From a virus, in the IMG/VR virus record IMGVR_UViG_3300005546_000004, positions 1 to 64,000 of that record: a DNA stretch of 64,000 nucleotides. One strand, given 5' to 3'. Both the position numbers and the translations under genes were made by a program. The notes below the pieces were generated by a model, which saw only the letters and a program-made list of their open reading frames with translations, was not told the origin of the DNA and searched no databases. Shown here in pieces: positions 5,029 through 57,091 of the stretch (the stretch's first letter is position 1; every line of letters begins with the position of its first letter).

Positions 5029-5095
5029 CTCGATCTCCCTGTCTAGGGTTAGGTGCCGAGGCGCCCTACCCAAGGCGCCCCGGCGGTTGCATTCG

Positions 5096-5160
5096 ACGCT
5101 CGGACTTGAACCGAGACATCCAGCTTTCCAAGCTGGTGGGCTGCCAAGTTGCCCCACATC
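5096..5160 (-). tRNA. tRNA-like element with intact D-arm, anticodon arm (loop TTGGAAA, anticodon GGA) and T-arm (CTCGG-TTCAAGT-CCGAG), but no obvious acceptor-stem pairing; degenerate tRNA or tRNA pseudogene
   Basis: Folded by eye from the reverse complement. U8, GG in the D-loop and GGTTCAAGTCC T-loop are present; the 7-bp acceptor stem could not be paired. Confidence 0.35.
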
Positions 5161-5248
5161 GGGTTACATTGATCCACCTCTACACGTTTAAGAACCTAGG
5201 TTAGCTTAAGAGCGCCGCGACGCTGCCGTTACGTCCACCGCGCCACGT

Positions 5249-5496: not shown

Positions 5497-6249
5497 CTAC
5501 TGTGGAGTAGTAACTCCGTGGAGCAGATAGTCGAAGATCCGGTCGCCCTCCCGGACGTCCTGAACCTCGGTCGAGTTCGCCTGCTCGCGGGCGAACTTAA
5601 CGGCTCGCTGCAGCTTCTCGACGCGCTCGACCAGCGCGGTTACCTCGGTGGCCGGCAGCGCGCCCGAGAACTTGATCGTCTTCCACGTACCGACGGGCAC
5701 GTCCTCGGTGTACATCTGCACCTGCGCCGGGTGACGATCCGTCGCCTCGGCGAGGACGTGGTTCCGCGGTACCTTCTTCGTCCGGACGGTCTCGACCGGC
5801 TCCGAGCGAAACACGCCGGTGTTCGCGTCGAACGTCCACGTCTCGGCCGGATCCAGCGTCGGCAGCTTCGCGAAGAACGTCCGCAGGTCGGTCAGCTGCT
5901 TCTCCAACCACAGCAGGTGGGTCGCCGGAACGGACCGCAGCAGCGTGACCCCGTCGACGACGACGTCCGCCAGCGCCGAGCAGTTGGTCACGTCCCGCGT
6001 CGCGGTCACGTCGAACAGCCGCACCAGCGCCCGGCGGACCTGGTTGAGTACGTCCGTCGTACTGACCTGGACCTTGGTGGACTCGGGTGGCAGCTGCTCG
6101 CCGTCCTCGTCCCTCGGCCGGTACGTCCGCGAGATGCCCGCCAACGGTCCGGTGCGCTGCGCGGCGTGGTGCGCATCGGTCAACAGCGTGAACGCGCCGG
6201 CCTTGACACCCTTCTCGATCGCGATGATCTGGTTGAGCTTCGTCGTCAC
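5497..6249 (-). CDS. hypothetical protein
   Basis: 250-aa ORF with a GGAGA ribosome-binding site upstream of the ATG (MTTKLNQ...). Confidence 0.6.
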   Translation of the reverse strand: MTTKLNQIIAIEKGVKAGAFTLLTDAHHAAQRTGPLAGISRTYRPRDEDGEQLPPESTKVQVSTTDVLNQVRRALVRLFDVTATRDVTNCSALADVVVDGVTLLRSVPATHLLWLEKQLTDLRTFFAKLPTLDPAETWTFDANTGVFRSEPVETVRTKKVPRNHVLAEATDRHPAQVQMYTEDVPVGTWKTIKFSGALPATEVTALVERVEKLQRAVKFAREQANSTEVQDVREGDRIFDYLLHGVTTPQ

Positions 6250-6285
6250 TCTCGGTCTCCATCTCGATTAAGTTAACTTACCTAG

Positions 6286-6358
6286 GTGCGGGAACCGGAT
6301 TCGAACCGGCGACCTCCGGGTTATGAGCCCGGTACGCTACCAACTGCGCCACCCCGCA
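6286..6358 (-). tRNA. tRNA-Met (anticodon CAT)
   Basis: Full cloverleaf by eye: acceptor TGCGGGG/TCCCGCA, D-arm GGCGCAGTTGGTAGCGT, anticodon arm CCGGG-CTCATAA-CCCGG, T-arm GCCGG-TTCGAAT-CCGGT. CCA is not encoded. Confidence 0.85.
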
Positions 6359-16414: not shown

Positions 16415-16839
16415 AACCGCGACGAAGCCGGTCGGAGAAGATCGTCGGCGGCCGCGATGACGACGGTCACGACGACACGTGGGCCGCCGCCTACGACGGC
16501 CTGGTCGTCGACGACCTCGAGGAGCCGCGCGCGTACCTCGACGTCGGCGAGGTCACGACCGAGTACGGCGTCTTCAACGACGCCGCGGTCTGGGAGCCGC
16601 TGTTCGCGTCCGGCGAGGTACACGAGTCGCTGCGCGAGGTCCTCGAGCGGCCGCTGTACGCCTCGGAGGTCCTCGAGGCGGCGGCCCGACACGCCCGGCT
16701 CGCCAACGAGGAGCGTGCCCTCGATGTCGCCAAGGTCGACAAGTTCGGCTACGTCGTCGTTAAGACGCGCCGCGTGGTACGGTCGCCGTGGGCGGACGTA
16801 CCGCTGGACGAACAGGCTCGGGCGTTGGGAGAGTTCTAG
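16393..16839 (+). CDS. hypothetical acidic protein
   Basis: Probable GTG start (VPADSVEP...) in the frame of table ORF 16348-16839. Confidence 0.4.
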   Translation, partial: TVPADSVEPRRSRSEKIVGGRDDDGHDDTWAAAYDGLVVDDLEEPRAYLDVGEVTTEYGVFNDAAVWEPLFASGEVHESLREVLERPLYASEVLEAAARHARLANEERALDVAKVDKFGYVVVKTRRVVRSPWADVPLDEQARALGEF

Positions 16840-17048
16840 TGACGTGGATCAGATCGTCGTTCTGCGAGTCCTCCGGCTGCGTCGAGGTTGCGGAGGTGCA
16901 GGGCGTCGATGGCGGCGAATGCGACGTCCTGGTGCGAGACTCGAAGATCGGCGACGACTCGCCGGTCCTGCAGTTCTCACGCGTCGCGTGGCGCGCGTTC
17001 GCCGATGCGATCAAGAACTCCGAGAACTTTATCGACGACATTCCGTGA
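16839..17048 (+). CDS. DUF397 domain protein
   Basis: VTWIRSSFCESSGCVEVAEV matches the DUF397 signature W.KSS.S...G.CVEVA, a Streptomyces-typical small protein family. GTG start overlapping the upstream stop. Confidence 0.6.
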   Translation: MTWIRSSFCESSGCVEVAEVQGVDGGECDVLVRDSKIGDDSPVLQFSRVAWRAFADAIKNSENFIDDIP

Positions 17049-17215: not shown

Positions 17216-18100
17216 GTGTTCATTACCGTTTTGATCGTTGTACTGTTCGTCCTCGCGATCGGTTGCCTGTTCAAGGGCACCGTCCGGCTCGACGGCGATC
17301 CGTTTCGGATTCGCTGGATCGGCGTCGTGCTACTCGGCGTCGGCTTTCTCGTCCTCGGACTCGCCACGATCGTCGTCGTCCCGACGAAGAACGAGGGCGT
17401 CGTCATCGCGTTTGGCAAGCCCGTCGACACGATCCACAACGGCATCCACGTGGTCGCGCCCTGGGAGGACGTCGCCGACTACGACGCGACGGTTCAGACG
17501 CTGGATATGTCCGGCAACGACGAGACGCCGACGCTGCACGTCCGGATGCTCGCCGGCCGGGCGACCGCCGACGTCAACGTCACGCTCAACTGGCGCCTCG
17601 AGGGCGACATTCAGCAGCTGCACAAGGACTGGCGCGAGTTCTCGCACATCCAGAAGTTCGTCGTCATTCCCCGGCTGCAGGACGCGCTCAACAAGGAGTT
17701 CACGGACTACGATCCGCTCGTCGCGCTGAAGAACGCCGACGCGAAGCCGGTGACGATGTCCGAGATGGAGATCCGCGTCGCCGAGCGGCTGCAGCGTAAC
17801 CTGCCCGCCGGCGTGTTCATCGACCACCTGCAGATTCCCCTGGTTATCTACCCGCCGGTCATCCAGGACGCGTTGAACGCGTACCAGAAGGAGCTCGCCA
17901 ACACGCAGGTGGCATTGCAGCAGAAGTCCACCGCGCAGGCGCAGAAGGACGCGCTGGACATCCTGGCGCAGGCTAGGATGTCGCCCGAGGCGTTCCAGCA
18001 GCAGTGCCTGATCATGACCGAGCGGCTGGCGCAGCAGGGTAAGCAGATTTCGCTGACGTGGTCGTGCGTCGCCGGCGGCGCCGGAGTCGTCGCCAAGTAG
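17216..18100 (+). CDS. SPFH / band-7 (stomatin-prohibitin-HflK/C-like) membrane protein
   Basis: N-terminal TM helix followed by VVPTKNEGVVIAFGKPVDTIHNGIHVVAPWEDV...TVQTLDMSGNDETPTLHV..., matching the SPFH core pattern. GTG start after AGAAGGAGAGGGAC. Confidence 0.7.
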   Translation: MFITVLIVVLFVLAIGCLFKGTVRLDGDPFRIRWIGVVLLGVGFLVLGLATIVVVPTKNEGVVIAFGKPVDTIHNGIHVVAPWEDVADYDATVQTLDMSGNDETPTLHVRMLAGRATADVNVTLNWRLEGDIQQLHKDWREFSHIQKFVVIPRLQDALNKEFTDYDPLVALKNADAKPVTMSEMEIRVAERLQRNLPAGVFIDHLQIPLVIYPPVIQDALNAYQKELANTQVALQQKSTAQAQKDALDILAQARMSPEAFQQQCLIMTERLAQQGKQISLTWSCVAGGAGVVAK

Positions 18101-18685: not shown

Positions 18686-20200
18686 GTGCAGACCAAGACG
18701 CGGGCGCAGCTGTTCGCCGAGCTCGCGGATCCGCCCGAGCGCCGGTGGCGCAACGACCCGATCCGGTGGGCGATCGAGCGCGCCCGGATCGAGATCTGGT
18801 CGAAGCAGCGCGAGATCCTCGAGGCCGTCCGGGACCACCCGCGGGTAGCGATCCCGTCGTGCCACTCCGCGGGTAAGTCGTTCACCATGGGCTGCCTAAC
18901 GTGCTGGTGGCTGGACGTTCACCCGATCGGCGAGGCCCGGGTAATCAGCACGGCGCCGACCTCGAAGCAGGTCGACGCCGTGCTGTGGAATGAGATCAAC
19001 CAGCACCACGCGCGCATCGGCCTGCGCGGCCGCACGAACAAGAACGAGTGGTACTTCGGCCGGTTCATGGCCGGGCTGGGGCGTAAGCCGCCGGACCACG
19101 TCGAGGCCGCCTTCCAGGGACTGCACGCGCTCTACCTGCTGGTGATCTTCGACGAGGCGTACGGCATCCCGAAGCACCTGTGGGACGAAGGCTCGTCGCT
19201 GGCGTCGAACCGCAACGCGCGGATGGTCGCCGTCGGCAACCCGGACGGACCCGGCGAGTTCGCCGAGATCTGCAGGCCGGGCTCCGGTTGGCACGTCATT
19301 CCGATCTCGTACCGGGACACGCCGAACTACACCGGTGAGCAGGTATCGGACCGGCTGCGGGACATGCTGATCTCGCTGGACTGGGTCGAGGACCGCCGCC
19401 GGAAGTGGGGTGAACAGTCGGCGCTGTTCCAGTCCAAGTGTGAGGGCAGGTTTCCGGCCGAGGGTTCGCCGTGGGACGTCATTCCGCACGCGTGGATCGC
19501 CCGGTGCCGTTCGCTGGAGCTGGTCGCCGACGGACCGATCGAGGCCGGCGTCGACGTCGCGGCCGGCAACGACCGCACGGTGGTCACGGTGCGGCGCGGT
19601 CCGGCGGTGCTGCACGTCGAGTGGTTCGTCGACGCGGACCCGATGAAGACCGTCGGCCAGGTCGCCAACGCCCTGCGCGACTGGAAGGTAACCAGCACGA
19701 AGGTCGACTCGATCGGCGTCGGCTGGGGCATCTACGGCCGGCTCAGGGAACTGTCCCGCCGGGTCAGTCCAGACGGCGGGGTGCACGACTCAGACGTGGT
19801 GCCGATCAACGTGTCGCTGGCGCCGACGCCCGGCAACGAGGAGCGGTTCTTGAACCGGCGCGCCGAGATGTGGTGGCTCGGACGGGAGCTGTCGCGCCTG
19901 CAGCGCTGGGACCTGTCGCGGCTGCCGGAGGACCTGCAGGACGACGTCATTCACGAGCTGGCGGCCCCGCGCTACGAGATCCTCGACTCGAAGGGCCGCG
20001 TGAAGATCGAGCCGAAGGACGACATCATTAAGCGACTCGGGGTCTCGCCCGACCTGGCGGAGTCGCTGCTGCTCGCGTTCGTTCCGGCCAACTGGACGGC
20101 CGAGACCAACACGCAGGCGCTGGTCGACGCGCCGAGCCTGCTGGAGTCGCTGTCCGCGTTCGACCAGGTCCACGCCGGCTCGTGGTGGCTGCGCCGGTAG
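18686..20200 (+). CDS. terL: Terminase large subunit
   Basis: ATPase Walker A-like CHSAGKSF; C-terminal nuclease domain (DSIGVGWGIYGRL). 504 aa. A GGGACC-GGAA-GGTCCC hairpin follows the stop. Confidence 0.85.
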   Translation: MQTKTRAQLFAELADPPERRWRNDPIRWAIERARIEIWSKQREILEAVRDHPRVAIPSCHSAGKSFTMGCLTCWWLDVHPIGEARVISTAPTSKQVDAVLWNEINQHHARIGLRGRTNKNEWYFGRFMAGLGRKPPDHVEAAFQGLHALYLLVIFDEAYGIPKHLWDEGSSLASNRNARMVAVGNPDGPGEFAEICRPGSGWHVIPISYRDTPNYTGEQVSDRLRDMLISLDWVEDRRRKWGEQSALFQSKCEGRFPAEGSPWDVIPHAWIARCRSLELVADGPIEAGVDVAAGNDRTVVTVRRGPAVLHVEWFVDADPMKTVGQVANALRDWKVTSTKVDSIGVGWGIYGRLRELSRRVSPDGGVHDSDVVPINVSLAPTPGNEERFLNRRAEMWWLGRELSRLQRWDLSRLPEDLQDDVIHELAAPRYEILDSKGRVKIEPKDDIIKRLGVSPDLAESLLLAFVPANWTAETNTQALVDAPSLLESLSAFDQVHAGSWWLRR

Positions 20201-20253
20201 TCAAACATTTGTCTAGGGGGACCGGAAGGTCCCGCGAAGAGAGGGAGATCGAG

Positions 20254-20463
20254 ATGAGTTGGATCGTGGAAACCGCAGAGCTGAAACCCGGAATGGTCAT
20301 TCGAATGGACGAGGGAGACTTCGAGGTTATCGCGCTAGATCGCGAGAACGCCTACGACAAGTACCTTCCCTGGACAGGGCGAAACGTAGCTACCCGAGCG
20401 ACCGTTACCTTCGCCGAGGCCCGCTACTACGGCGACAACGAGGTTCTTGGTTACGCAGTTTGA
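20254..20463 (+). CDS. hypothetical protein
   Basis: ATG after GAGGGAGATCGAG; followed immediately by hammerhead ribozyme 1. Confidence 0.5.
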   Translation: MSWIVETAELKPGMVIRMDEGDFEVIALDRENAYDKYLPWTGRNVATRATVTFAEARYYGDNEVLGYAV

Positions 20464-20467
20464 AAAA

Positions 20468-20517
20468 GATCGAAACGCCGGGAGGCGTCCACGGTTCAAG
20501 ACCGTGCTGATGAGATC
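20468..20517 (+). ncRNA. Hammerhead ribozyme, type II topology (copy 1)
   Basis: GAUC-GAA-A-[helix III ACGCC-GGGA-GGCGU]-C17-[helix I CACGG-UUCAAGA-CCGUG]-CUGAUGA-GAUC. Conserved core CUGAUGA and GAAA. GUC cleavage triplet. Helix II formed by the terminal GAUC/GAUC. Confidence 0.75.
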
Positions 20518-20536
20518 AAAAGAGACGGAGATCGAG

Positions 20537-20815
20537 ATGAGCTACGACAGAGACGACGTCGAACTGACCGAACTACTCGAGTCGCAGATCGGCGAGGTGC
20601 CCGACACGGGCTCGCCCGAGGTTAGGTACCCGAACGTCACGGTAAAACTGGTCGGCGAGGACGGCAACGCGTTCAACCTGATTGGAGTGGTAGCCCGAAG
20701 GATACGCGTCGCGATCGGCCGCGAGGCTGAGAAGGCGTTTACGACCGAGGCCTTCGACTGCGACTCGTACGACGAGCTGCTCGCCTTCATTCAGCGAACC
20801 GTGATCGTCGAGTAG
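20537..20815 (+). CDS. hypothetical protein
   Basis: ATG after GACGGAGATCGAG; lies between the two hammerhead motifs. Confidence 0.5.
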   Translation: MSYDRDDVELTELLESQIGEVPDTGSPEVRYPNVTVKLVGEDGNAFNLIGVVARRIRVAIGREAEKAFTTEAFDCDSYDELLAFIQRTVIVE

Positions 20816-20822
20816 CAAGACA

Positions 20823-20886
20823 GATCGAAACTCCGATCGCCGGGAGGCAGAGCGGGGTCCACGGCTTGCGGCCGTGCTGACGAGAT
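20823..20886 (+). ncRNA. Hammerhead ribozyme, type II topology (copy 2)
   Basis: GAUC-GAA-A-[extended helix III ACUCC...GCC-GGGA-GGC...GGGGU]-C17-[helix I CACGGC-UUGCG-GCCGUG]-CUGACGA-GAUC. N7 varies (U to C). Helix I is lengthened by a compensatory base pair relative to copy 1. Confidence 0.7.
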
Positions 20887-20908
20887 CGTGAGAGGAGAGT
20901 GAGAGGAG

Positions 20909-21166
20909 ATGCGCGACGGTACGTACTTCCTGATCGAGGCGCTGAGGCGTAACGAGACCGGCACCGTAGAGTGGGCGCTCGTCGCCGGCGACACGCCCGG
21001 CGTTCCGCTCCGACTGACGGACCGGGACGAGGCGATCGTCCGGTGGCGCCGGGCGCGCGGCGACTACCGCGACGTCCGGATCGTTCGGATCGAGATCCGC
21101 GCCGGCGAGCTGGTCGACGAGCGAGTGGTCGACCTGGACGAGCCGCAGTTTAAACTGATCGACTAG
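20909..21166 (+). CDS. hypothetical protein
   Basis: ATG after GAGAGGAGAGTGAGAGGAG. Confidence 0.5.
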   Translation: MRDGTYFLIEALRRNETGTVEWALVAGDTPGVPLRLTDRDEAIVRWRRARGDYRDVRIVRIEIRAGELVDERVVDLDEPQFKLID

Positions 21167-21167
21167 T

Positions 21168-21196
21168 TGCACATAACTCACATGTGAGTTAGAGTA
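21168..21196 (+). promoter_or_regulatory. Sigma-70-like promoter TTGCAC-N17-TAGAGT with a 16-bp perfect palindrome (AACTCACATGTGAGTT) in the spacer (operator candidate)
   Basis: Read directly from sequence: -35 at 21168-21173, -10 at 21191-21196, palindrome at 21176-21191. Confidence 0.5.
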
Positions 21197-21363
21197 GTTC
21201 CTATAAGTGAATGCGCATCGTCAAAATCTACCGACCAGAGGGTCCGCACTGTGCATTCACTTTCTTCGCGCGTCGAAGTTTCTCCGCGCAGATCTCCTCA
21301 GTTTCACCGGTCCGCCACGGGGGCGTCGACCGGCGACGCATCCCAAGCCTGAGGAGGCAAATC

Positions 21364-22089
21364 ATGGAACACCGGACGCAGTCCGCGATATTCCGCACCG
21401 AGTGGGCGAAGAACGCGGCTCGTACCATGCTCGACGTAATCAAGGCGATCACCAAGCGCTCAAAGCTCATCACGGGCCTCGCGCTCGGCGCCTCGACCCC
21501 GCACCAGATGCTCTACCTGATCGCGGCGTGCATCCCTCACATGCACCTAGACAGCTTGCAGGGCAAGCTGGACGCGCTCGGAATGGTACTGATCGCCGTG
21601 GTGGTACCCATCGTGGCGGACCTGACGATCTACACGTGCATCGACACGCTCGGCGCGCAGGCTGCGTCCCGATCGTCCAAGCTCAGGGCACTCCTGTTCA
21701 TGATCATTCCGCTCGGGGCGAGCGGCTACGTCAACTTCCTCGCCCCCGCGCCGATGCTCCTCAAGGGGCTGGCGGCCTTCCTGGTAGCTATGATCATGAT
21801 CGCGCAGGGGCTTCGATTCATCGAGGCCGACTGGCAGCAGCTCGAGGACTTCGAGACTAGGAACGTCGTGATCGAAGACGTACTGGACGAACCCGCGCGG
21901 CCGAAGCGCCCGCCGGTCACGGAGCGAGAGAAGCGGGCCCGCCGGAGGGACTTTTACGACGCGATGACCAACACCGAGAGGTACAAGTGGCGGACCGCGT
22001 GGCGAATCAAGGAGACGGCGCGCCTGGCGCGCGAGGTCGAGGACTCCGTACCGGTCAGCCCGGCACCCGCCGGACTGAGCGTCGAGTAG
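21364..22089 (+). CDS. Polytopic membrane protein with charged C-terminal tail
   Basis: ATG after GAGGAGG. At least 4 hydrophobic helices (LITGLALGA, MVLIAVVVPIVADLTIY, ALLFMIIPLGASGYV, LAAFLVAMIMIAQGL). Confidence 0.55.
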   Translation: MEHRTQSAIFRTEWAKNAARTMLDVIKAITKRSKLITGLALGASTPHQMLYLIAACIPHMHLDSLQGKLDALGMVLIAVVVPIVADLTIYTCIDTLGAQAASRSSKLRALLFMIIPLGASGYVNFLAPAPMLLKGLAAFLVAMIMIAQGLRFIEADWQQLEDFETRNVVIEDVLDEPARPKRPPVTEREKRARRRDFYDAMTNTERYKWRTAWRIKETARLAREVEDSVPVSPAPAGLSVE

Positions 22090-22197
22090 AAGATCGTAGG
22101 GCCCGGGCTTCGGCTCGGGCCCTTCGGCGTTTACGGGCGTGAACGCCTGTGATATAGTAGGTTCTAGGTGGAACAACCGCAGATAGGGAGAACGAAG

Positions 22198-22365
22198 ATG
22201 AGGGACCTCGAGGACCGCTGGGGACGCTGCGACCGTCACGGCGGACTGATCGACGAGTGTGAGTTGCTGTACCGGCCGGCCGCGGACGAGCTGATCTGCG
22301 ACGACTGCGCGGCGGACGAGATCGCCGAGCTCAACGAGCTCGCGCGGCGGGCGGTGAGGTCGTGA
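22198..22365 (+). CDS. small zinc-ribbon protein
   Basis: ATG after GGGAGAACGAAG. C..H..C...C..C pattern in 55 aa. Confidence 0.45.
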   Translation: MRDLEDRWGRCDRHGGLIDECELLYRPAADELICDDCAADEIAELNELARRAVRS

Positions 22366-22820
22366 ACCGGGTGATCGGCCTCCACGGAACCGCGCTGGTG
22401 ACGTGCCCGCAAATGCACTCGCACGGTCTAGTGCCGCTGGACGTCGCGTACGACGCCGAAGAGCCGCTGACGATCGCCCTGGTCGTCACCGACGCGGCGA
22501 ACAAGACCTACGCGTGGCAGCTGTCGCGCAACCTACTGCTCGAGGCAGTCGTCGACGGCGATAAGAACGACTGCGCGGTCGTCGGCCTCGGCGACGTGAC
22601 GTTGAAGGTCCGAACGTCGGATCCGTGCGCGATCACACTGCGGCTGCGGGTCGCCGATCCGAGCCGTCCGCAGCTGCGTAGCTTCGTCTACCTGATCGTC
22701 GATCGCGACCAGCTGCGCAGGTTTGTCCTCGACACGTACGAGGTCGTACCGGCGCACCTCGAGGTCGACCACCTGCCGCTGGACGACGTCGACCGGCTAG
22801 TCGAGGAGGAGTGGAAGTGA
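22362..22820 (+). CDS. SsgA-like protein (SALP; SsgB-like sporulation-specific cell-division protein family)
   Basis: Pattern VAYDAEEPLTIALVV...YAWQLSRNLLLEAV...GDVTLKV...AITLRL..FVYLIVDRDQLRRFVLDTYEVVPAHLE parallels SsgB (YDTADPYAVHATF..WVFARDLLAEGL..GDVRVWP..VALSSP..LESFLKRTDAAVPPGTE). 152 aa. Confidence 0.6.
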   Translation: MNRVIGLHGTALVTCPQMHSHGLVPLDVAYDAEEPLTIALVVTDAANKTYAWQLSRNLLLEAVVDGDKNDCAVVGLGDVTLKVRTSDPCAITLRLRVADPSRPQLRSFVYLIVDRDQLRRFVLDTYEVVPAHLEVDHLPLDDVDRLVEEEWK

Positions 22821-23005
22821 GCCAGCCCCGGGAGTGGCGAGACGCGGCGCTGCGGGTGCACCTCAGCCGCCTGCGGCACCTGCTGCGCATGCTGGCCGTC
22901 GGCGCCTACGACGACTGCGACCCGGCGCTGCTGGAGGAACTCGACGGCTGCGCCGGCGATCTGGTCACCACCGTCCAGGTCGCGCGCAAGGTGATTGGAG
23001 CGTAG
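22817..23005 (+). CDS. hypothetical small protein
   Basis: GTG start overlapping the upstream stop. Confidence 0.35.
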   Translation: MSQPREWRDAALRVHLSRLRHLLRMLAVGAYDDCDPALLEELDGCAGDLVTTVQVARKVIGA

Positions 23006-23034
23006 AAACTTAAAGTAGGCGAGGGAACCGCCAG

Positions 23035-23068
23035 GCCCGCTCGGGTCTGGCGGTTTTTCTTTAGCACC
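23035..23068 (+). terminator. Rho-independent terminator (CCGCCAG-loop-CTGGCGG followed by TTTTTCTTT)
   Basis: Perfect 7-bp GC stem plus U-tract, located between the early/auxiliary block and the morphogenesis block. Confidence 0.7.
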
Positions 23069-23084
23069 GTAGTACGATCTCTCT

Positions 23085-23510
23085 GTGTTGGAAACCCTCC
23101 CGACCTGGCTGCGGCTGCCCCTGCTGCTCGCCCTGCTCGCCGGCGGAACCTACCGGGCAACGCGGATCGTCACGCGCGACAAGCTGCCGTTGATCTGCGT
23201 GCCGCGCGAGTGGTTCGTTCAGCGCTGGGGCGCCTACGAGGACGACCCGACGGCGACGTGGGAGACGCGCCGCGGCCAGCGCCGGGTCTCGATCGGCGGG
23301 TTCAGGACCAACGCGTTTGCGGCGTCGCTCGCGTACCTGTGGGAGTGCGACTGGTGCCTGTCGATCTGGATCGGTTCCGGGCTGACGTACCTAACGTGGC
23401 GCTGGTCCGAAACGATGCTGTGGATGCTCGCGGCGCTGGTCACGTCCGGGTTCACCGGGTTCGCGACGAAGATCGAGACGTACCTCGATAAGAAGACCGA
23501 GTCGAGGTAG
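23085..23510 (+). CDS. membrane protein (Trp/Cys-rich WECDWCLSIWIG motif)
   Basis: 141-aa ORF with hydrophobic N- and C-terminal helices. Confidence 0.5.
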   Translation: MLETLPTWLRLPLLLALLAGGTYRATRIVTRDKLPLICVPREWFVQRWGAYEDDPTATWETRRGQRRVSIGGFRTNAFAASLAYLWECDWCLSIWIGSGLTYLTWRWSETMLWMLAALVTSGFTGFATKIETYLDKKTESR

Positions 23511-23517
23511 GTGACGC

Positions 23518-25143
23518 GTGACCGATCGCATCGGACGCAGCCGCCCGCGCGGCGAGCTGGCGCTGTCCGGCGAAATTCTGCCCGCGGACGTCGTCACCGC
23601 GTCGGCGCAGCTACTGTTCGGCACGGCCCGCGAGTCGTACGCCACCCAGTACCGCACGTGGCAGGACGAACTGTGGAACTACGCCAAGTCCGTCGGCGAG
23701 TACGGCAGCGTCATGGACTGGTTCGCCGCCGGCTGCTCGCGCATGCATCTGGTCGCGGCGCTCCAGCGGCCCGGCCTGCGGGAACCCGAGCCGATCACCG
23801 ACCCGGCGGATCCGGCCGCGCGGCTCATGCACCGGCTGACGATCAACGCCCGCGGCGGCGAAACCCAGTACCTGTACAAGTGGGGCCGGCACCTGGGCAC
23901 GCCCGGCGTCGGCTACTTCGTCGCGTACACGCGCGACGAGGACAACGTCGAGGTGTTCGACGTCAAGTCCGCCAAGCAAATCCGGCGCTCGACGCAGCCG
24001 TTCACCGACCCACGGACCGGCCGCGACGTCCAGGGACGCGACGGCCGCGTCCTGCTCGGCTACGACGTCATGGTCGGCCAGAACGAGTGGCTTAAGCTGC
24101 CCTACTCGCAGCTCGTCGGCCGGATCTACCGCCCCGACGACGAACTGGACTACGAACCGACGTCGTGGTCCCGCGCCGCGCTGACGACGCTGCGCGAGAT
24201 CGACCTGCTGAACCGGCACATCGTCGCGACGCTGCTGTCCCGGCTCGTCTTCAACGGCATCCTGTTCATACCCGACGAGGTCACGTTTCCCGTCAACCCG
24301 CAGTTCAAGGACGCCCCGGATCCGTTCATCGCGGAGCTGCTCGCCGTCGCCTCGCGCGGCATCCGCGACCCGGGTTCGCCCGCCAGCGCGATCCCGTTCC
24401 CGCTGCGCGTCAAGTCCGAATTCATCGAAAAGTTCAAGCACCTGATCATCGCCACCGGCATCGACCCGAAGATCATCGAGGCGCGCGCGGCGGCGATCAC
24501 CAACCTGTCGAAGCAGCTGCCGGCGCCGCCCGAGGCCATGCAGGGCAAGGGCGATCTGAACCACTGGAACGCGTGGAAGGACTCCGAGGACAACGTTAAG
24601 ATGTACTTCGGTCCGACCCTGGAGATCCTCGCCGGCGGGCACACGGACGTCTACCTGCACCCGATGCTGCGCGCCGCCGGCCAGCCGATCGACCGGCCGG
24701 AGGGCCGGGTCATCTGCTGGTACGACGACTCGGACCTGGTCGTCAAGCCCGACAACTCGGAGAACGCCAAGTCCGCCCGCGAGGTCGTCGCCATCCGAAC
24801 GGACGCGTACCTGGAGCAGCTCGGCCTCGACAAGGCCGACAGGCCGTCCAAGTCCGAGCGCCGCGAACTTATCCTGACCGACCTGGCGCGACAGGGACTG
24901 CCGACGCCGGACTCGTACTACCTGCTGTACCCCGAGGACAAGCCGGATCCCGTCGACGTAGCGACCGACGCCGCCGCCCGGGCCGGCCAGCTAGATCCGG
25001 CGACCGGGCGTCCCGCGATTCCCGCTGGCCCCGGGCAGCAGCCGGGACGCCCGGGCGCCGACCAGTCCAACGTCCGCGAGCAGGCGCCGTCGACGGGCCG
25101 AGGCACGCCGTCGCGGCCGCCGCAGCCTCCCCGAGGAGGTTAG
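23518..25143 (+). CDS. Portal protein
   Basis: 541-aa protein placed between terminase and head-morphogenesis genes; acidic Pro/Gln-rich C-terminal tail typical of actinophage portals. Confidence 0.75.
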   Translation: MTDRIGRSRPRGELALSGEILPADVVTASAQLLFGTARESYATQYRTWQDELWNYAKSVGEYGSVMDWFAAGCSRMHLVAALQRPGLREPEPITDPADPAARLMHRLTINARGGETQYLYKWGRHLGTPGVGYFVAYTRDEDNVEVFDVKSAKQIRRSTQPFTDPRTGRDVQGRDGRVLLGYDVMVGQNEWLKLPYSQLVGRIYRPDDELDYEPTSWSRAALTTLREIDLLNRHIVATLLSRLVFNGILFIPDEVTFPVNPQFKDAPDPFIAELLAVASRGIRDPGSPASAIPFPLRVKSEFIEKFKHLIIATGIDPKIIEARAAAITNLSKQLPAPPEAMQGKGDLNHWNAWKDSEDNVKMYFGPTLEILAGGHTDVYLHPMLRAAGQPIDRPEGRVICWYDDSDLVVKPDNSENAKSAREVVAIRTDAYLEQLGLDKADRPSKSERRELILTDLARQGLPTPDSYYLLYPEDKPDPVDVATDAAARAGQLDPATGRPAIPAGPGQQPGRPGADQSNVREQAPSTGRGTPSRPPQPPRGG

Positions 25144-25145
25144 AC

Positions 25146-26705
25146 GTGGCCGCCCCGCGGATCGTCCGCGGCTGGGACGAACACGACATCCGGCGGCGCG
25201 AGGCCGTCTTCGATGGCCTGGTCACCAAGGCCGTCCGCATGTCGCTGCGTGCGCTGACGGCCGACCTGCGGCCGATCGTCGCCGCGTACAGGCCGCAGCT
25301 GACGCTCGGCGAATCCGGCACCGTTGCCGCGACGTGGCAGGCCTACGTCGCCGGCGAGCTGTACCCGTACCTGGTCCAGACGTTCGTCGACGCCGCCGGT
25401 GACGTCGCCGAGAACACCGAGGCCGCGACTGGCGCGACGCTGCCGGCCGTCGGCTACTCGTACGCCGCGGACTACCTAGCCTCGGCGACCAATCGACTGT
25501 GGAACCTCGGCGACCAGGTCTGGAACCAGGTCCGTGACCAGCTCGCCGTCGGCTACGACTCCGGCGAGTCGATGACCCAGCTCGCCGCGCGGATCCGGGA
25601 TGTCTCGAACCTGACGGAGGCCAAGGCGCTGGCCGTCGCCCGGACCGAGGTCGCGTCCGCCGCCAACCAGGGCACGCTGTACCAGATGCTGGTCGCCGGC
25701 TTCACCGACCAGGAGTGCGAAAAGGGCTGGCTGGCGACCGAGGACGAACGCACCCGACCGGCGCACGTCGCCGCGGACGGGCAGTGGGTCGGCATCCTGC
25801 AGCCGTTTAACGTTGGTGGCGAGGGCCTGCAGTGCCCCGGCGACCCGACCGGGCGGCCGGACAACATCATCAACTGCCGGTGCACGCTGCAGTTTCGCTT
25901 TCCCGACGACAACGACGAACCGCAAACCGCCGCCGGCCAGCCGCGCGACGCCTACGGTCGCTTCATCCGGGCGTCCGCGGCTCCCGCCGGCCTCGACCAG
26001 TTCCGCTGGGTCGAGGACGAGCACCCGCGCCTACCGGACGGCGAGTTCACCGACAAGTTCGACTGGCTGTCGTTCGCCGACGCCGACAAGATGCACGACG
26101 ACATGCAGCGCGGCAGGCCGTGGAGCGGCGCGCAGTTCGACGCGCTGACCGAGTACTCCCGCAGCGCGTACGCGCCGATCAACATGTACCTACGCGGACA
26201 GACGCACCCGGACGACGACGCATCGGCGCGAACGCTCGCGCACATCGACGACATTCGAGCCGCGATGCGGCCGATGACGCGCGACCTGAAGGTCCAACGC
26301 GGCCTATACGCCGACGCGTTCGAGGGCGTCAAGACCGCCGGCGACCTGGAGAAGATGATCGGCCGCACGTTCGAGGAGCGCGGCTTCCTGTCGACGACGA
26401 TCGATCCGAGGTTCCTGCGACACACGAAGACCGCGCGCACCGATCAGATCGTGACGCTGGAACTGGACGTGCCGGCCGGTACGCCCGCGGCGTACCTAGC
26501 CGCCGGCCAGTCGCACCAGCACCCCGGCCTCGCCGGCGAGCGCGAGCTGCTGCTCGACGCCGGAGCCCGGTTCGTCATCACCGGCGTCGAGGAGCGCACC
26601 GTCGACGGACGCGACCGGTTCATCGTCCTCGCGCGCGTCGTACCGCCACCCGCTAGAACCTGGCGGAAGCTTCACCTGCCGTGGACGAAGGGAGGCTCCG
26701 CGTGA
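25146..26705 (+). CDS. MuF-like head morphogenesis protein fused to a C-terminal R-S-E ADP-ribosyltransferase toxin domain
   Basis: MuF/SPP1-gp7 hallmarks TRPAH and INCRC. C-terminal ART motifs: YSRSAYAPINMYLRG (aromatic-x-IN-xx-LR), FLSTTID (STS), GERELLLDAG (ExE). Confidence 0.8.
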   Translation: MAAPRIVRGWDEHDIRRREAVFDGLVTKAVRMSLRALTADLRPIVAAYRPQLTLGESGTVAATWQAYVAGELYPYLVQTFVDAAGDVAENTEAATGATLPAVGYSYAADYLASATNRLWNLGDQVWNQVRDQLAVGYDSGESMTQLAARIRDVSNLTEAKALAVARTEVASAANQGTLYQMLVAGFTDQECEKGWLATEDERTRPAHVAADGQWVGILQPFNVGGEGLQCPGDPTGRPDNIINCRCTLQFRFPDDNDEPQTAAGQPRDAYGRFIRASAAPAGLDQFRWVEDEHPRLPDGEFTDKFDWLSFADADKMHDDMQRGRPWSGAQFDALTEYSRSAYAPINMYLRGQTHPDDDASARTLAHIDDIRAAMRPMTRDLKVQRGLYADAFEGVKTAGDLEKMIGRTFEERGFLSTTIDPRFLRHTKTARTDQIVTLELDVPAGTPAAYLAAGQSHQHPGLAGERELLLDAGARFVITGVEERTVDGRDRFIVLARVVPPPARTWRKLHLPWTKGGSA

Positions 26706-29700
26706 CCGCGCTGACCGATCCGCGCAACGCGCTGCTCCGCGTCGTCGACGGCGACGGCAAACCGCTGACGGCCGCCAAGCACGCGCACGCTCCGTCCGCC
26801 ACCAAGTGGAAGGAGTGGCTGCACCCGCGCGATCCGATCGGACAGTTCACCCAGAAGGGTGGATCCGGCGCGACGCCCGGCAAGGCGATCAAGATTAACA
26901 CGACGGTCGTCTACAAGACCAGCTACCAGCACGGCCAGGTCGTCGCCGTCCAGAAGACCCCGTTCGGCGCCAGGCGCGAACTGCGCTGGAACGCGCACGA
27001 CGCGATGCCCGGCTCCGGCGTCGCCGGCCGATTCGAGATCTGGAGCGACTACGGCGCGCCCGACCAGGGGATGACGCAGGCGCAGGTCCTCGGTAAGGGC
27101 GGTACGTACTCCAGTTTGAAGAACGACCCGGGCTGGTTCGCGCCGCAGAAGCCGACGATCGTCACGTCCGAGGAATTACCGCACGTCAAGATAACCTCGC
27201 CCGCGGACGACACACTCTACGACGACCTGATCGGAAACTACGACGACGGAACGCCGCAGACCTCGGAGGATGCGATCGCCGCGATCCAGGACATGAATGG
27301 TCCTGAGTTCGCGCAGTTTATGAACGATCACTTCGACGAGCTGCAGGCCGGCGTCTGGGTCGACCTGTCCGACCCGGAGAAGAAGGCCCTCGCCGACAAG
27401 GCCAAGAGCCTGCAGGTCGATCCCGCGGGAAAGGGCTTCTCGCCCGACGATGTCAATGGCTTCGTGTACCTGGAGCCGTTCAATCAGATCTACGAGCTGC
27501 AGCAGGGTAAGACCGCGCTACCTCAGTTCCACGAGATGAACGTGGCTGAGCTCAACGACTGGTTCGACGCGCTGACGGTCGAGGACTACCAGGCGCTCAG
27601 CGTAGACGACCAGGACAAGCTCGCCCAGGTCGCCGACGAGGCGTACGGCACCTACGGCAACGGCCATCCCCTCGATCAACTCAACGAGATCATCGAGCTA
27701 CATAACAAGCACAGCCTACCTAGTGATGATCCTAGTGATTATGACCACCAACAACTGGTCGCTCAAGAGATCGATCACCTCGGTAAGAGTGATTTTCAGA
27801 CGTGGCTCTACGATAACATTTACCCGGAGAGCTGGAACAGCCTACATGTAAGTGCGCAGGAGCACATCGCGGGTAAGGCTGGTGACCTAGATCTAACTCA
27901 CGTGCTCGACGACCTGATCTCGGGCGGCACCGGCATGGTCAGCGACGACGTGCCCCATACCGGCGGCCTCGAAAACCTAAGTAAGGCCGACTTTCAGGAA
28001 TGGATCGACACGTACGTCGACTCGGCGATGTGGCAGACCGGCTTCGACGCGACCACGAAGAAAAAGATCCTCGACACCGCGCTCGGTCACGGCCTCTACG
28101 GTCACCTAACGCAGCTGACCAACGACGTGATACCCGAAACGTCACTCGCCGGTCCGTCCGGTCCTGCGCCGTCCGTCGTCGAAAAACCCGACGTAAAGAA
28201 ACTACAGTTCACCGGCCTGGCGCTCGGAACGCACGGCGCGCAGGTGATGTACCTACGCGGAAGCGCGACGCACGCGGACTACGGTCAAACGTACCTGTTT
28301 AAGCCGACGCCGAAGAGCCTCGACTTTACGGTCGAGGCCGACGTCGCCGTCTCGAAGCTGCAGCAGAAGTTCGGCATCGCGGCGCCCGAGCTGTGGGCCG
28401 TCACGCTGCCCGACGGCACGTACGGCTCGCTGCAGCGCATGATCAAATCCGAGCCGGCGTTTCCCGGAAAGTTCGACGCGAAGAGTCTTACACCTAGCCA
28501 GGTCAACAGCCTGGTCAGGCACCAGGCGTTCGACTGGCTGGTCAGCAACCACGATAGCCACGCCGGCAACTTCATCACCGACTCGGATACCGCCGAACTG
28601 ATCGCCGTCGACAAGACCCAGGCGTTTAAGTTCTTCCCCTACGACCAGCTGTCCAGCACGTACCACCCGAACACCGTCGAGCAGCCGCCCGTCTACAACA
28701 AGCTGTGGCAGGCGTTCGAAAAGGGCGATGTCGACATAGCGCCGCCGCAACACGGCCTCTACGGCATCGGCATGGACCTGCTCGCGATGACGCAGATCTC
28801 CGACGCCGAGCTGCGCGACGTCCTGCGGCCGTACGCCGAGGCCGCCGCGAAGCGCGGCAAGCTCATGACGGTTCACCCGCCCGGCGTCACCGTCGACGCG
28901 CAGGGTCTCCAGGTTCATCCGAACAGCGTCGAGGAGTTCCTCAACCGTGCCGTTAGCCGCAAGAACAGCCTCTTCGAGGACTTCGACAAGTTCTACGTGG
29001 ACGAGCTCGCCAAGCGCAACAAGCACCTCGGCCTACCGCCTGGGACGCCGGGCGCGTCGTCGATCAAGCAGGTCGCGGCGCCGGCGGCGAACGTCGTCGC
29101 GCCGAACCCTCCCAACGGCGGCATCGGCACCAGCGTTCCGATCAAGCTCAACACCAAGACGGTCCACACCGCCAAGTACCAGCACGGCGAGATCGTCGCC
29201 GTCCGCGAGGTCGGCGCCAGCGAAATTCAGCAGCTCTTCTGGGACGAGGGCAAGAAGAAGTTCGGCGTCCGAATCGGCTACGCGGGCGGATCGTGGACGA
29301 ATACGCACTACGCGTCGAAGAAGATCATCTACGACGCCTACAAGGGCGACACGAACTGGCGGGCGCCGCAGCCCGGCTCGACGATTCAGGACGAAAAGTA
29401 CGGACCGAGCTCCGGAACGACGAAGACGTCGCCGTCGACGCAGAAGATTGTCAAGCTGACGGCGAAGGACATTCAAAATCAGTACGGCACTGTACCGACG
29501 CAGTTGCCGGACGACGAAGCCTGGGGTCTAGCCAAGAACGTCAAGAACTACAGTCCCCTGAAGACGGTCAGCCTCACTACCACGTCGCCGACGATCTTTA
29601 AGGCGCTCGCGTGGGCCGTCGCCAAGCACAACCACGACTACCCGAACTCGCCGCAGCTCAACCTGCTGCAGGGCGTCAAGGTGCTCGACGCGAAGTCCGT

Positions 29701-30448
29701 GCCCTACGGCGGTCAAAACGCGGGTCTCTACGAGAAGAAGGTCGTCGACTGGCTGCAGACCGCCTCCGGAAAGAAGAACGGTCAGTCGTTCGTCGAATGG
29801 GCGCAGGCCGAGGTCGCCAAGGGACCGGCGCCCGCGGCGCAGCCGACCGCCGTCGCGTTTAAGAACGCCTACGAGCTCGGAGTGCCGAACTCGAAGGTCA
29901 CTAAGTTCGGCAACATCACGCCGTACGACGCGCAGGCTATGAACGTTGTCATGCGCGCGAAGCACGGCGACTGGACCTCCGAGCAGTTCAGCGCGATCCA
30001 TAGCTACACGGGTGGTGGCTACCACTCGATCAACGGGTCGCTGCGCAAGGGCGCTCCGAACCACTACGCCGCCGTGCTGCAGAGCGCGATGGCGCCCGTC
30101 TCGAGCAGCTTCACCGTGCACCGGGGCACCGACGGCGTCGGCGACCTGATCAAGAACACGATGACCGAGGAGCAGCTGCAGGCGCTGGTCGGTAAGACGA
30201 TTACGGACCCGGCGTTTCTGTCGTCCAGCGTCGGCGGATCGGCGGCGTTTAGCGGGAGAAAGTTTACGCTGCACGTCGACGTCCCGGAGGGTACACCCGG
30301 CGCGTACGTCGCCAACCACAGTTCGGTTGGTCCCGGAGAGCGTGAGTTTCTGCTCGCCGCCGGCCTCAAGTACCGGATAGTTTCGATCGACAAGAACGCG
30401 AGCTCCGTATCGACCAAGTACCGGATACACCTGAAGGTGGTGAACTAA
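26681..30448 (+). CDS. 1255-aa multi-domain virion protein: duplicated YQHG-containing domain, possible kinase-like domain, C-terminal R-S-E ADP-ribosyltransferase
   Basis: Repeats KINTTVVYKTSYQHGQVVAVQK (26891-26957) and KLNTKTVHTAKYQHGEIVAVRE (29141-29210). SNHDSHAGNF...AVDKTQAF (D-x-H-x-x-N catalytic-loop-like motif, about 28540). C-terminal ART motifs YTGGGYHSINGSLR, FLSSSVG, GEREFLL (29940-30445). Confidence 0.7.
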   Translation: MDEGRLRVTALTDPRNALLRVVDGDGKPLTAAKHAHAPSATKWKEWLHPRDPIGQFTQKGGSGATPGKAIKINTTVVYKTSYQHGQVVAVQKTPFGARRELRWNAHDAMPGSGVAGRFEIWSDYGAPDQGMTQAQVLGKGGTYSSLKNDPGWFAPQKPTIVTSEELPHVKITSPADDTLYDDLIGNYDDGTPQTSEDAIAAIQDMNGPEFAQFMNDHFDELQAGVWVDLSDPEKKALADKAKSLQVDPAGKGFSPDDVNGFVYLEPFNQIYELQQGKTALPQFHEMNVAELNDWFDALTVEDYQALSVDDQDKLAQVADEAYGTYGNGHPLDQLNEIIELHNKHSLPSDDPSDYDHQQLVAQEIDHLGKSDFQTWLYDNIYPESWNSLHVSAQEHIAGKAGDLDLTHVLDDLISGGTGMVSDDVPHTGGLENLSKADFQEWIDTYVDSAMWQTGFDATTKKKILDTALGHGLYGHLTQLTNDVIPETSLAGPSGPAPSVVEKPDVKKLQFTGLALGTHGAQVMYLRGSATHADYGQTYLFKPTPKSLDFTVEADVAVSKLQQKFGIAAPELWAVTLPDGTYGSLQRMIKSEPAFPGKFDAKSLTPSQVNSLVRHQAFDWLVSNHDSHAGNFITDSDTAELIAVDKTQAFKFFPYDQLSSTYHPNTVEQPPVYNKLWQAFEKGDVDIAPPQHGLYGIGMDLLAMTQISDAELRDVLRPYAEAAAKRGKLMTVHPPGVTVDAQGLQVHPNSVEEFLNRAVSRKNSLFEDFDKFYVDELAKRNKHLGLPPGTPGASSIKQVAAPAANVVAPNPPNGGIGTSVPIKLNTKTVHTAKYQHGEIVAVREVGASEIQQLFWDEGKKKFGVRIGYAGGSWTNTHYASKKIIYDAYKGDTNWRAPQPGSTIQDEKYGPSSGTTKTSPSTQKIVKLTAKDIQNQYGTVPTQLPDDEAWGLAKNVKNYSPLKTVSLTTTSPTIFKALAWAVAKHNHDYPNSPQLNLLQGVKVLDAKSVPYGGQNAGLYEKKVVDWLQTASGKKNGQSFVEWAQAEVAKGPAPAAQPTAVAFKNAYELGVPNSKVTKFGNITPYDAQAMNVVMRAKHGDWTSEQFSAIHSYTGGGYHSINGSLRKGAPNHYAAVLQSAMAPVSSSFTVHRGTDGVGDLIKNTMTEEQLQALVGKTITDPAFLSSSVGGSAAFSGRKFTLHVDVPEGTPGAYVANHSSVGPGEREFLLAAGLKYRIVSIDKNASSVSTKYRIHLKVVN

Positions 30449-31156
30449 TTGGGGGCGCTGACTGACAACGAGTCGCTCGAGTTCACGGTCGTACCTGACG
30501 GTGAACTGATCGGCTACACCGAGGACGAGGCCTACGCGTTCCTGGCCGGCGTCGGCCCCGAGACGTCGACGACGAAGCTGCCGCCGTTCGTTGCCGCGGC
30601 CGACGGTGCGCGGACCGGCGCGATGATCGGGCTGGTGCCCTCCGAGGCGGATGCGGACCGACTTGCGGTCGACGGCGGCGAGCCTGCGGACGAGCTTCAC
30701 CTGACGCTGCTCTACCTCGGCGATGCGGTGGATGTTTCCGACGAGGCGCGCGCCGCGATCGAGGTCGCTGTACGGCGCTACGCCGGCGAACCGATCACGG
30801 CGGAGGCGTTCTCCGTCAACATGTTCAACCCCAATAGCGACGACGGGGACATGGCGGTCGTCCTCGGCGTCGGCAACGACGGCGGACCTGCGCTGCACCG
30901 GCTGCACACCGACGTCGGCGCAGCGGTCCGTGGGACCGGCGGCTTCGAGCTGCCCGAACAGCACGAACCGTGGGTGCCGCACGTCACCTTGGCGTACACG
31001 GACGACCTGAACCTCGCGGCGACCGTCGTCGACCGCGTCGGACCGATCACGTTCGACCGGATCCGGCTCGCGTTCGCCGACCATGTCGTCGACATTCCGC
31101 TCAGCTCCGCGAGTTCACAGCCCGGTGCTAGCGTTAGCCACGCGGGCGGGAGGTAA
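30449..31156 (+). CDS. 2H phosphoesterase superfamily protein (LigT / CPDase / Acb1-like fold)
   Basis: Two H-x-T-x motifs: HLTLLYLGD (30697) and HVTLAYTDD (30978). TTG start after AAGGTGG. Confidence 0.65.
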   Translation: MGALTDNESLEFTVVPDGELIGYTEDEAYAFLAGVGPETSTTKLPPFVAAADGARTGAMIGLVPSEADADRLAVDGGEPADELHLTLLYLGDAVDVSDEARAAIEVAVRRYAGEPITAEAFSVNMFNPNSDDGDMAVVLGVGNDGGPALHRLHTDVGAAVRGTGGFELPEQHEPWVPHVTLAYTDDLNLAATVVDRVGPITFDRIRLAFADHVVDIPLSSASSQPGASVSHAGGR

Positions 31157-47312: not shown

Positions 47313-47313
47313 G

Positions 47314-56951: not shown

Positions 56952-57091
56952 CGGGTATTCACCACCATCCACGCGCCGGCCCAGCACACGCCGATGACGA
57001 CGGCCGCGACCACGACGAAGAACGCGATCAACGCGACTACGCCGGCGGCGCCGGATCCGGATGCCTCAAACACTTTTCGCGGTTCACTCAC
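56950..57091 (-). CDS. small membrane protein
   Basis: GTG-initiated 46-codon ORF (ALIAFFVVVAAVVIGVCWAGAW) coupled by GTGA/ATGA overlaps to both neighbours; not in the table. Confidence 0.3.

Follow-up and report, generated by a model that had tools for sequence, protein, structure and literature searches.

A divergent SsgA-like protein encoded by an uncultivated actinobacteriophage, and its possible role in host septation

How a phage copes with a multicellular, sporulating hyphal host is a question raised by one locus in a 64,000-nucleotide stretch of viral DNA (IMG/VR record IMGVR_UViG_3300005546_000004, positions 1 to 64,000; hereafter the window), in which a gene lying between the terminase and portal genes resembles the SsgA-like proteins (SALPs) of Streptomyces. 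In these bacteria SALPs act as positive regulators, directing FtsZ to its sites of assembly; they mark sites of septation and wall remodelling (PMC4255298), and the family member SsgB recruits FtsZ (PMC8061694). Host development, in turn, limits the spread of phages in Streptomyces (PMC10117723). Is the viral gene a true SALP, and what would a phage gain from carrying one? To the first question the reply is almost certainly yes. What is new here is that the gene represents a separate, phage-only branch of the family, having its own sequence motif, a coupled zinc-ribbon gene, a conserved promoter and terminator, and a fixed genomic position. To the second, a role in manipulating host development can reasonably be inferred.

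The gene itself is as follows.

22362-22820, plus strand: SALP gene, with a GTG start at 22362 and a TGA stop at 22818-22820, encoding an acidic protein of 152 residues (isoelectric point, pI, 4.9)

The GC content of its codon positions is strongly indicative of coding (0.88 at third positions, GC3; 0.37 at second positions, GC2) in a sequence of 66% GC overall. The Pfam SsgA profile (PF04686), which has a gathering cut-off of 25 bits, matches the protein at residues 24-134 with 39.3 bits (E 6.2e-10) over the entire profile, positions 1-98 of 98. A preliminary description of this DNA had placed an SsgA-family gene at 22362-22820 and had named the PF04686 search beforehand as the test by which that assignment could fail; the open reading frame proved exact, and the match is both full-length and above the cut-off. 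A library-wide HMMER search, with the SALP and three close relatives as query, found 24 proteins, 18 of which individually pass Pfam SsgA in the resulting alignment. When the profile of this alignment was compared with known structures, it matched those of SsgB (6slc, E 1.2e-15; 3cm1, E 2.4e-11) and nothing else below E 0.4. Matches to P450 proteins from a single-sequence search of the PDB were spurious. AlphaFold (AF2) modelling from a 27-sequence alignment returned a predicted local distance difference test score (pLDDT) of 84.8 and a predicted template modelling score (pTM) of 0.78, as compared with a pLDDT of 37.7 from a 4-sequence alignment, and Foldseek ranked 6slc, 6suj and 3cm1 first for this model (E 6e-8, TM score 0.80), the next match being above E 2e-3. 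The predicted fold is the α+β, whirly-like fold of SsgB in a small single domain (family range about 120-160 residues). By sequence and predicted fold, the protein is a genuine, highly divergent SsgA-like protein. Members of this family bind FtsZ or other SALPs, localise to future septa and form trimers.

The preliminary description had gone further and called the protein SsgB-like, which the comparisons do not support. The window SALP is 18-21% identical to the SsgB structures of S. coelicolor (6SLC/6SUJ) and T. fusca (3CM1), as compared with 46% between the SsgB proteins of these two species (PMC8061694); a neighbour-joining tree places it in a separate clade; and the sole NCBIfam SALP equivalog model to match it is that of SsgD, at 25.8 bits against a cut-off of 185. 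As judged from these comparisons, it is no orthologue of SsgB. The two have in common the Pfam family, size, whirly-like fold (predicted for the window SALP), acidity and the α3 helix, whereas the window SALP differs in having a C-x3-H-x-H motif in its β1-β2 loop, a longer, hypervariable loop at residues 94-108, a phage genome as its home and a zinc-ribbon gene as its partner. With SsgA and SsgC-G it shares the family, again without an equivalog-level match. The SALP paralogues have diversified into septum-site choice, spore wall synthesis and spore separation, and those other than SsgB are essentially limited to the Streptomycetaceae (PMC4255298). Since the paralogues control different steps, a divergent member with an altered role fits the known behaviour of the family.

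Which parts of SsgB have been retained was assessed by mapping the residues of the S. coelicolor protein onto the window SALP through the profile alignment, with residue roles taken from published work (PMC8061694). In SsgB, a salt bridge between R55 and E120 fixes helix α3 (Xiao et al. 2021, PMC8061694); the equivalents in the window SALP, R56 and E134, are invariant and nearly invariant, respectively, and L57 (L58), V115 (V129) and P116 (P130) are kept as well. Two positions have changed, namely Y35 (L36) and G118 (H132). The Y35H variant of SsgB is non-sporulating, and G118V produces tilted septa, its self-interaction being reported as retained and its localisation dynamics as normal; FtsZ binding is retained by the E120G and E120A variants (PMC8061694). 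Cellular-type SALPs in alignment A10 retain G118, which most of the phage clade has lost.

These residues bear on the idea that the phage protein is an activator, acting like over-expressed SsgA or SsgB and triggering extra septation or fragmentation of infected hyphae, such that the infected compartment could be walled off for the phage's benefit or sites of wall remodelling could be marked for lysis. Over-expression of SsgA alone leads to hyper-septation and fragmentation in Streptomyces. The ssgA gene has also been cited as a determinant of mycelial morphology (PMC11302927), and the structural core that holds helix α3 is intact in the phage protein. However, the equivalents of Y35 and G118, where substitutions abolish or misdirect SsgB function, are not conserved, and a lytic phage gains no obvious benefit from subdividing its own compartment. 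An activator of this kind is accordingly regarded as unlikely. Because the fold and the α3 clamp are kept but the positions at which changes misdirect septa in SsgB are not, competition with host SALPs or FtsZ is the most plausible mode of action, and faithful activation of septation is less likely.

SALPs are not new to phages, and the novelty implied by the preliminary description does not extend that far. An ssgA gene was reported in Streptomyces phage Dagobah (Hardy et al. 2020, PMC7650747), and its product, gp31 (MT711977, "SsgA family sporulation/cell division regulator"), is a phage-borne SALP already proposed to manipulate host development; SALP genes occur, in addition, in about 38 Streptomyces phage records. 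In a later account, ssgA was listed with whiB, ftsK and parB among phage genes possibly manipulating development (Luthe et al. 2023, PMC10117723). Dagobah gp31 scores 74.7 bits against Pfam, lies much nearer to the cellular SALPs than the window SALP does and, unlike it, groups with them; the two have no detectable BLASTP similarity (E 1.2). It is encoded among replication genes on the other strand, and it lacks both the zinc-ribbon neighbour and the C-x3-H-x-H motif. The large Streptomyces phages (Blueeyedbeauty gp209, Annadreamy, TunaTartare, Faust, BillNye and others) carry a second set, which are PF04686 proteins like the window SALP. Blueeyedbeauty gp209 scores 51.9 bits and has relatives in 38 phage records, all of them from Streptomyces phages. 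These proteins are very acidic, 123-129 residues long and, in the records listed, annotated as hypothetical; their genes have an Lsr2-like gene nearby, in a region that is early or accessory, and no zinc-ribbon partner. They are about 23-25% identical to the window SALP with non-significant E-values, and they are its best structural matches in the viral structure library BFVD, where a BillNye protein is named as SsgA family. Neither the Dagobah nor the Blueeyedbeauty SALP gene has a zinc-ribbon gene beside it.

The closest relatives of the window SALP are instead three metagenomic proteins of 72-95% identity, and no other close ones were found; remoter relatives, at 22-48% identity, likewise come from metagenomes. 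Together they form a separate, phage-only branch in at least 11 metagenomic phage contigs, the copies of which span 22-95% identity. The branch is marked by the motif C15-x3-H19-x-H21-G22 in the predicted β1-β2 loop, and C-x3-H-x-H is present in 21 of 26 branch members as opposed to none of 21 other SALPs. A fourth metal ligand at H132, joining C15, H19 and H21, was considered and dropped, as H132 is not conserved in the clade. Pattern scans of 185,579 GTDB species genomes gave no match to this SALP branch or to the related DUF1360 protein encoded next to it, and hence no prophage, and an IMG/VR scan with SALP alignment A5 gave no relatives. A megablast search with window positions 20000-25000 and a tblastn search with the SALP against 50,697 phage records yielded no match at E<=1e-3, so that this region has no nucleotide match among isolate phages. 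At E<=10, tblastn gave weak matches to the large Streptomyces phages only, and it was Pfam that then showed these to be SALPs.

The gene does not stand alone. It belongs to what appears to be a small accessory cassette, the remaining parts of which are as follows.

22098-22123, plus strand: stem-loop 1, GC-rich, with an 11-bp stem and a TTCG loop, just 3' of the stop codon of an upstream open reading frame of 292 residues
22130-22158, plus strand: sigma-70-type promoter-like site, with -35 TTTACG (22130-22135), a 17-nt spacer, TGA (22150-22152) and -10 TATAGT (22153-22158)
22198-22365, plus strand: zinc-ribbon-like open reading frame of 55 residues, with an ATG start at 22198 and an AGGGAG Shine-Dalgarno sequence; an alternative GTG start lies at 22168
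22811-23005, plus strand: third small open reading frame (orf64) of 64 residues, GC3 0.91; if it starts instead at the in-frame GTG at 22817, it overlaps the stop codon of the SALP gene as GTGA
23021-23063, plus strand: intrinsic terminator with a 13-bp GC-rich stem, a GCTC loop and a T-run (minimum free energy, MFE, -31.5 kcal/mol, z -2.9)

The zinc-ribbon protein is acidic (pI 4.4; GC3 of its gene 0.86) and has the motif C-x2-H ... C-x2-C (G-R-C-E-x-C/H-G ... C-x2-C), for which Pfam returns weak, generic zinc-ribbon matches and no specific family. In the window its stop codon overlaps the SALP start (GTGA), and the two genes are translationally coupled. Homologues of 45-55 residues, with C11, C34 and C37 invariant, lie directly 5' of the SALP gene in ten loci (the window, L003, L029, L030, L004, L006, L009, L010, L016 and L019). 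The third open reading frame is 83% identical in L003, a syntenic 65-kb relative phage, and has weak similarity in L004 and L006; it is optional, being absent between the SALP gene and the terminator in L009, L010, L011, L013 and L016. None of the three proteins belongs to a PHROGs family, and orf64 has no family match in Pfam or NCBIfam either.

Upstream of these genes, the promoter was recognised in a consensus scan as having an extended -10 (TG before the -10 hexamer). An element of the same architecture is found 5' of the zinc-ribbon gene in eight phages whose SALPs share just 25-30% identity: it consists of a -35 TTGCAC (TTTACG in the window), a 17-nt spacer ending in TGTGA, and TAnnnT. 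The sequence TGTGATANNNT occurs twice in the window as against 0.22 expected occurrences, and genome-wide promoter and terminator scans were at chance level except at the cassette sites. In six of the eight phages, the start codon follows the -10 hexamer by 6-7 nt, which implies a leaderless mRNA; in the window and L003, by contrast, about 40 nt of leader precede the start codon and include the AGGGAG ribosome-binding site. The RNA of positions 22086-22200 folds with an MFE of -47.7 kcal/mol (z -3.4), and none of 200 shuffled sequences folds as well. Within it, stem-loop 1, identical in L003, probably serves the preceding unit as terminator or attenuator. Stem-loop 2 (22131-22152) falls within the spacer of the promoter; L003 preserves it with a G-C pair in place of a G-U pair and a UUCG loop in place of UGAA. 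The tandem stem-loops at 22098-22152 could serve as a terminator or operator. In remote relatives, an inverted repeat encloses the -35 hexamer. A sub-threshold Rfam match to BjrC68, an sRNA model, on the minus strand at the tandem stem-loops was the sole match at E<=1 in 20000-23600 and is probably meaningless.

At the other end of the cassette, a terminator had earlier been placed at 23035-23068; the hairpin and T-run are real, lie at about 23021-23063 and are conserved in a related phage. A strong hairpin with a T-run separates the SALP cassette from DUF1360 in eight phages (the window, L003, L006, L009, L010, L011, L013 and L016). Beyond it lie a conserved -10-like hexamer (TAGTAT/TAGTAC) and the start of DUF1360, which appears to be leaderless. 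Given both a conserved promoter and a conserved terminator, the cassette is read as an autonomous, moron-like unit. The SALP gene had also been thought to share a transcription unit with TerL and with small genes separated by hammerhead ribozymes. TerL is indeed present upstream (18686-20200; phrog_2, E 8.5e-35), but in view of the two conserved stem-loops and the promoter that precede the cassette, co-transcription with the SALP gene is unlikely to be the main mode of cassette expression, even if some read-through from upstream may take place. The hammerheads were not recovered: no Rfam ribozyme, hammerhead or other, reaches its gathering score in the whole window or E<=1 in 20000-23600. A TAGTASGWTCT motif seen before both units was set aside as not significantly enriched (4 matches versus 1.04 expected; a count of 4 was attained in 3 of 100 shuffles).

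The position of the cassette is as constant as its parts. It sits at the 3' end of a variable cargo region that runs from TerL to the portal gene (23518-25143, phrog_776), and every SALP member on a long contig that was examined (L003, 65 kb; L004, 57 kb; L006, 104 kb; L009; L010) has the order TerL, cargo, SALP, DUF1360, portal, MuF/ADP-ribosyltransferase. The gene between cassette and portal is the following.

23085-23510, plus strand: DUF1360 membrane protein (PF07098, 25.7 bits; phrog_781, E 1.7e-13), outside the cassette and directly before the portal gene

An IMG/VR search with this neighbour returned 18 loci; 8 of the 18 carry a SALP gene directly upstream, and the other ten, which have no SALP, have a more divergent DUF1360. 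The SALP gene is directly upstream of DUF1360 in all SALP-bearing loci. The DUF1360 protein is 56-89% identical across the phages; its gene, apparently leaderless, begins a separate unit and is preceded by a conserved CCGTTGTAGTAT-like element; in the window, a -10-like TAGTAC stands 6 nt before the GTG start. DUF1360 also has an invariant YLWECDWC motif, and throughout these phages (the window and L011-L028) its gene directly precedes that for the portal.

Two of the competing explanations can be weighed against this arrangement. For an activator, it would be attractive that the cassette has a strong host-type promoter and that a membrane protein is encoded next door, since DUF1360 could in principle anchor the SALP as SepG does SsgB. 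The two genes are separated, however, by a conserved terminator and a second promoter, and because 10 of 18 related phages have DUF1360 but no SALP, their coupling is doubtful; a functional link between SALP and DUF1360 was therefore downgraded. The other explanation is a role internal to the phage, in which the SALP fold, along with the zinc-ribbon protein and perhaps DUF1360, has been re-used to package DNA or build the virion. Such a role would account for the fixed terminase-portal position, invariant in all SALP-bearing loci, and it would agree with a zinc-ribbon partner of a kind not known for cellular SALPs and with the relationship of the whirly-like fold to the nucleic-acid binders MRP1/2, PBF-2, Why2 and Pur-alpha. 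Yet the SALP and its partner are both acidic, which argues against nucleic-acid binding; sister phages with the DUF1360-portal-MuF module have no SALP; and the gap between TerL and portal is a general cargo site in this phage group, as in Gordonia phage Clown and Streptomyces phage BabyGotBac. A host-type promoter and a terminator of its own are, moreover, the hallmark of an accessory gene. Taken together with the substitution rates given below, these points make a phage-internal role very unlikely.

Substitution rates were computed as the ratio of nonsynonymous to synonymous changes (dN/dS) between the window and L003. The values are 0.60 for the SALP, 0.70 for the zinc-ribbon open reading frame, 0.37 for orf64, 0.26 for DUF1360, 0.12 for the portal and 0.09 for TerL, such that the SALP ratio is 5-6 times that of the portal and TerL. 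Changes are unevenly spread. The loop at residues 94-108 is replaced outright in L003, with an insertion, and has a local dN/dS of about 2, as compared with values below 1 outside the loop. The copy of 95% identity differs at seven positions, every one of them within residues 7-23 (β1 and the β1-β2 loop), where C15, H19, H21 and G22 are fixed. The clustering at residues 7-23 and 94-108 may reflect diversifying selection, although the sample is small. Such variation suits an accessory protein that interacts with the host; neither a structural component nor a dead passenger would be expected to vary in this way. A passenger, or decaying gene, would be a host SALP picked up by chance and of no current function, or else a chance or fold-only match to Pfam, and it could explain the relatively high dN/dS (0.3-0.7), the replaced loop, the lack of a PHROGs family and the lack of an isolate-phage match at E<=1e-3. 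It would not explain an intact frame with strong coding bias, nor the retention of copies at 22-30% identity at the same locus with promoter, terminator and partner gene, nor the invariance of C15, H19, H21 and G22 amid varying neighbours, nor a dN/dS that stays below 1 away from the loop; the sequence, the profile and the predicted fold also point the same way. The passenger reading is largely refuted by these conservation data, and little credence is left for it.

What, then, would the cassette do? As proposed here, the stem-loop, the host-type sigma-70 promoter, the zinc-ribbon gene, the SALP gene, the optional small open reading frame and the intrinsic terminator would together make up an accessory unit, conserved at its site across the phage lineage, for whose transcription the host RNA polymerase would suffice unmodified, with no dependence on the late operon. 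The SALP, probably with the zinc-ribbon protein, would mimic or compete with the host SALPs (SsgB/SsgA) in the infected hypha and thereby uncouple FtsZ-dependent septation and cell-wall remodelling from the positional control of the host. Sporulation septa or cross-walls would be blocked or misplaced, and the infected compartment would remain productive, with no escape into spores. That the protein manipulates host SALPs or FtsZ in some manner, by interference or by activation, seems somewhat probable; that it does so specifically by interfering with septation is a tentative reading, held at a little under an even chance. It is also conceivable, if rather improbable, that the zinc-ribbon protein and the SALP are a two-protein device evolved by phages and without a counterpart in cells, in which the C-x3-H-x-H motif docks the partner, possibly around a shared metal site, and the complex captures FtsZ or the SsgA/SsgB/SepG system, so that a whole lineage of soil actinophages would control where, or whether, hyphae divide. 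The β1-β2 loop of SsgB forms part of the same "lid" surface as its α2-α3 loop, which sets the angle of the division plane.

Interference with host division has precedents among phages. Kil of lambda and Gp0.4 of T7 have been shown by experiment to inhibit division of the host cell. WhiBTM4, an actinophage WhiB-like regulator, hinders mycobacterial septation (cited in PMC7650747). All three are small accessory proteins that target FtsZ or the control of septation, so that the infected cell stays undivided. The analogy with the window SALP is one of working only: the folds and families are unrelated, and for those proteins the block of division is experimental.

Several points weigh against septation interference and should be considered with it. 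A functional study of any phage SALP was not found in the literature, and the determinants by which SALPs bind FtsZ or SsgA are too ill-defined for an in silico test. A dN/dS of 0.3-0.7 amounts to weak constraint on the SALP. The fold match is not fully independent of sequence homology, as the alignment supplied to AF2 included cellular SALPs. The promoter rests on consensus and conservation, and the stem-loops overlapping it could mean something else. Finally, the closest isolate proteins, from Streptomyces and Gordonia phages, are about 33% (capsid) and about 28% (portal) identical, and nothing related was found in GTDB genomes.

The locus is of interest under either outcome. At least 11 natural phage variants of 22-95% identity differ from SsgB exactly where point mutations misplace septa; if they interfere with or redirect division, the phage SALPs would be ready-made probes of the SsgA-SsgB-FtsZ pathway and might serve to control the mycelial form of strains used in industry. 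An absence of any effect on division would mean that the SALP fold has a second use.

As for the phage itself, about 48 open reading frames of the window were scanned against Pfam, and no integrase was found among them. The window encodes a PrimPol/D5 primase, a Band_7 protein, a MuF-ADP-ribosyltransferase fusion, the major capsid protein and tape-measure proteins, along with a thymidylate-synthase homologue, DUF7873, glycosyltransferases, DUF932, a lysin-like glycoside hydrolase, a C5 methylase, AAA_24 and an SNF2 helicase; further genes encode a dCMP deaminase, a 2'-5' RNA ligase-like protein, a sugar C-methyltransferase, a nucleotidyl transferase and a PD-(D/E)XK nuclease. No sign of lysogeny was seen in the carrier, an uncultivated tailed actinobacteriophage. 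Streptomyces is the host in all 39 isolate phage records that include a SALP, and one relative is on a contig labelled farmland. A second homologue of a Streptomyces developmental regulator family is encoded at 16788-17048 (plus strand), where a small DUF397 protein scores 58.4 bits against Pfam; DUF397 is the BldB family (PMC10294661), and L003 has a DUF397 gene as well, plus a gene of the GerE/LuxR type. The isolate-phage SALPs, the DUF397 gene and the farmland relative hint at a Streptomyces-like host. The statement in the preliminary description that SALPs exist only in sporulating actinomycetes is approximately right; Cellulomonas and Kineococcus, however, also have SsgB-type proteins (PMC4255298), and for this reason the constraint on host range that it drew from the SALP is suggestive and not proven.

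Other features of the window are noted in passing. ADP-ribosyltransferase domains (PF03496) occur in two head-associated proteins, the MuF fusion (25146-26705, plus strand) and the C-terminus of a 1255-residue protein (26681-30448, plus strand) that is conserved in relatives at 1313-1844 residues; both may be toxins or effectors delivered with the virion. Genes that, taken as a set, resemble a DNA hypermodification or sugar pathway lie at 629-2192 (minus), 47200-48513 (plus), 50236-51315 (plus) and 57088-59962 (minus), and the set comprises a dCMP deaminase, a thymidylate-synthase homologue with an N-terminal extension, a Methyltransf_13/14 sugar C-methyltransferase, two glycosyltransferase-like proteins and a nucleotidyl transferase. 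Genes for tRNA-Ser(GGA) and tRNA-Met (5089-5164 and 6285-6358, minus strand) flank the DUF7873 gene (5497-6249, minus strand, 368 bits), whose conservation is very strong, and DUF7873 is also present in the 104-kb L006. A gene of the 2'-5' RNA ligase superfamily (LigT-like; 30449-31156, plus strand) lies inside the head module, and a Band_7/SPFH gene (17216-18100, plus strand) is located upstream of the terminase; both are conserved in relatives.

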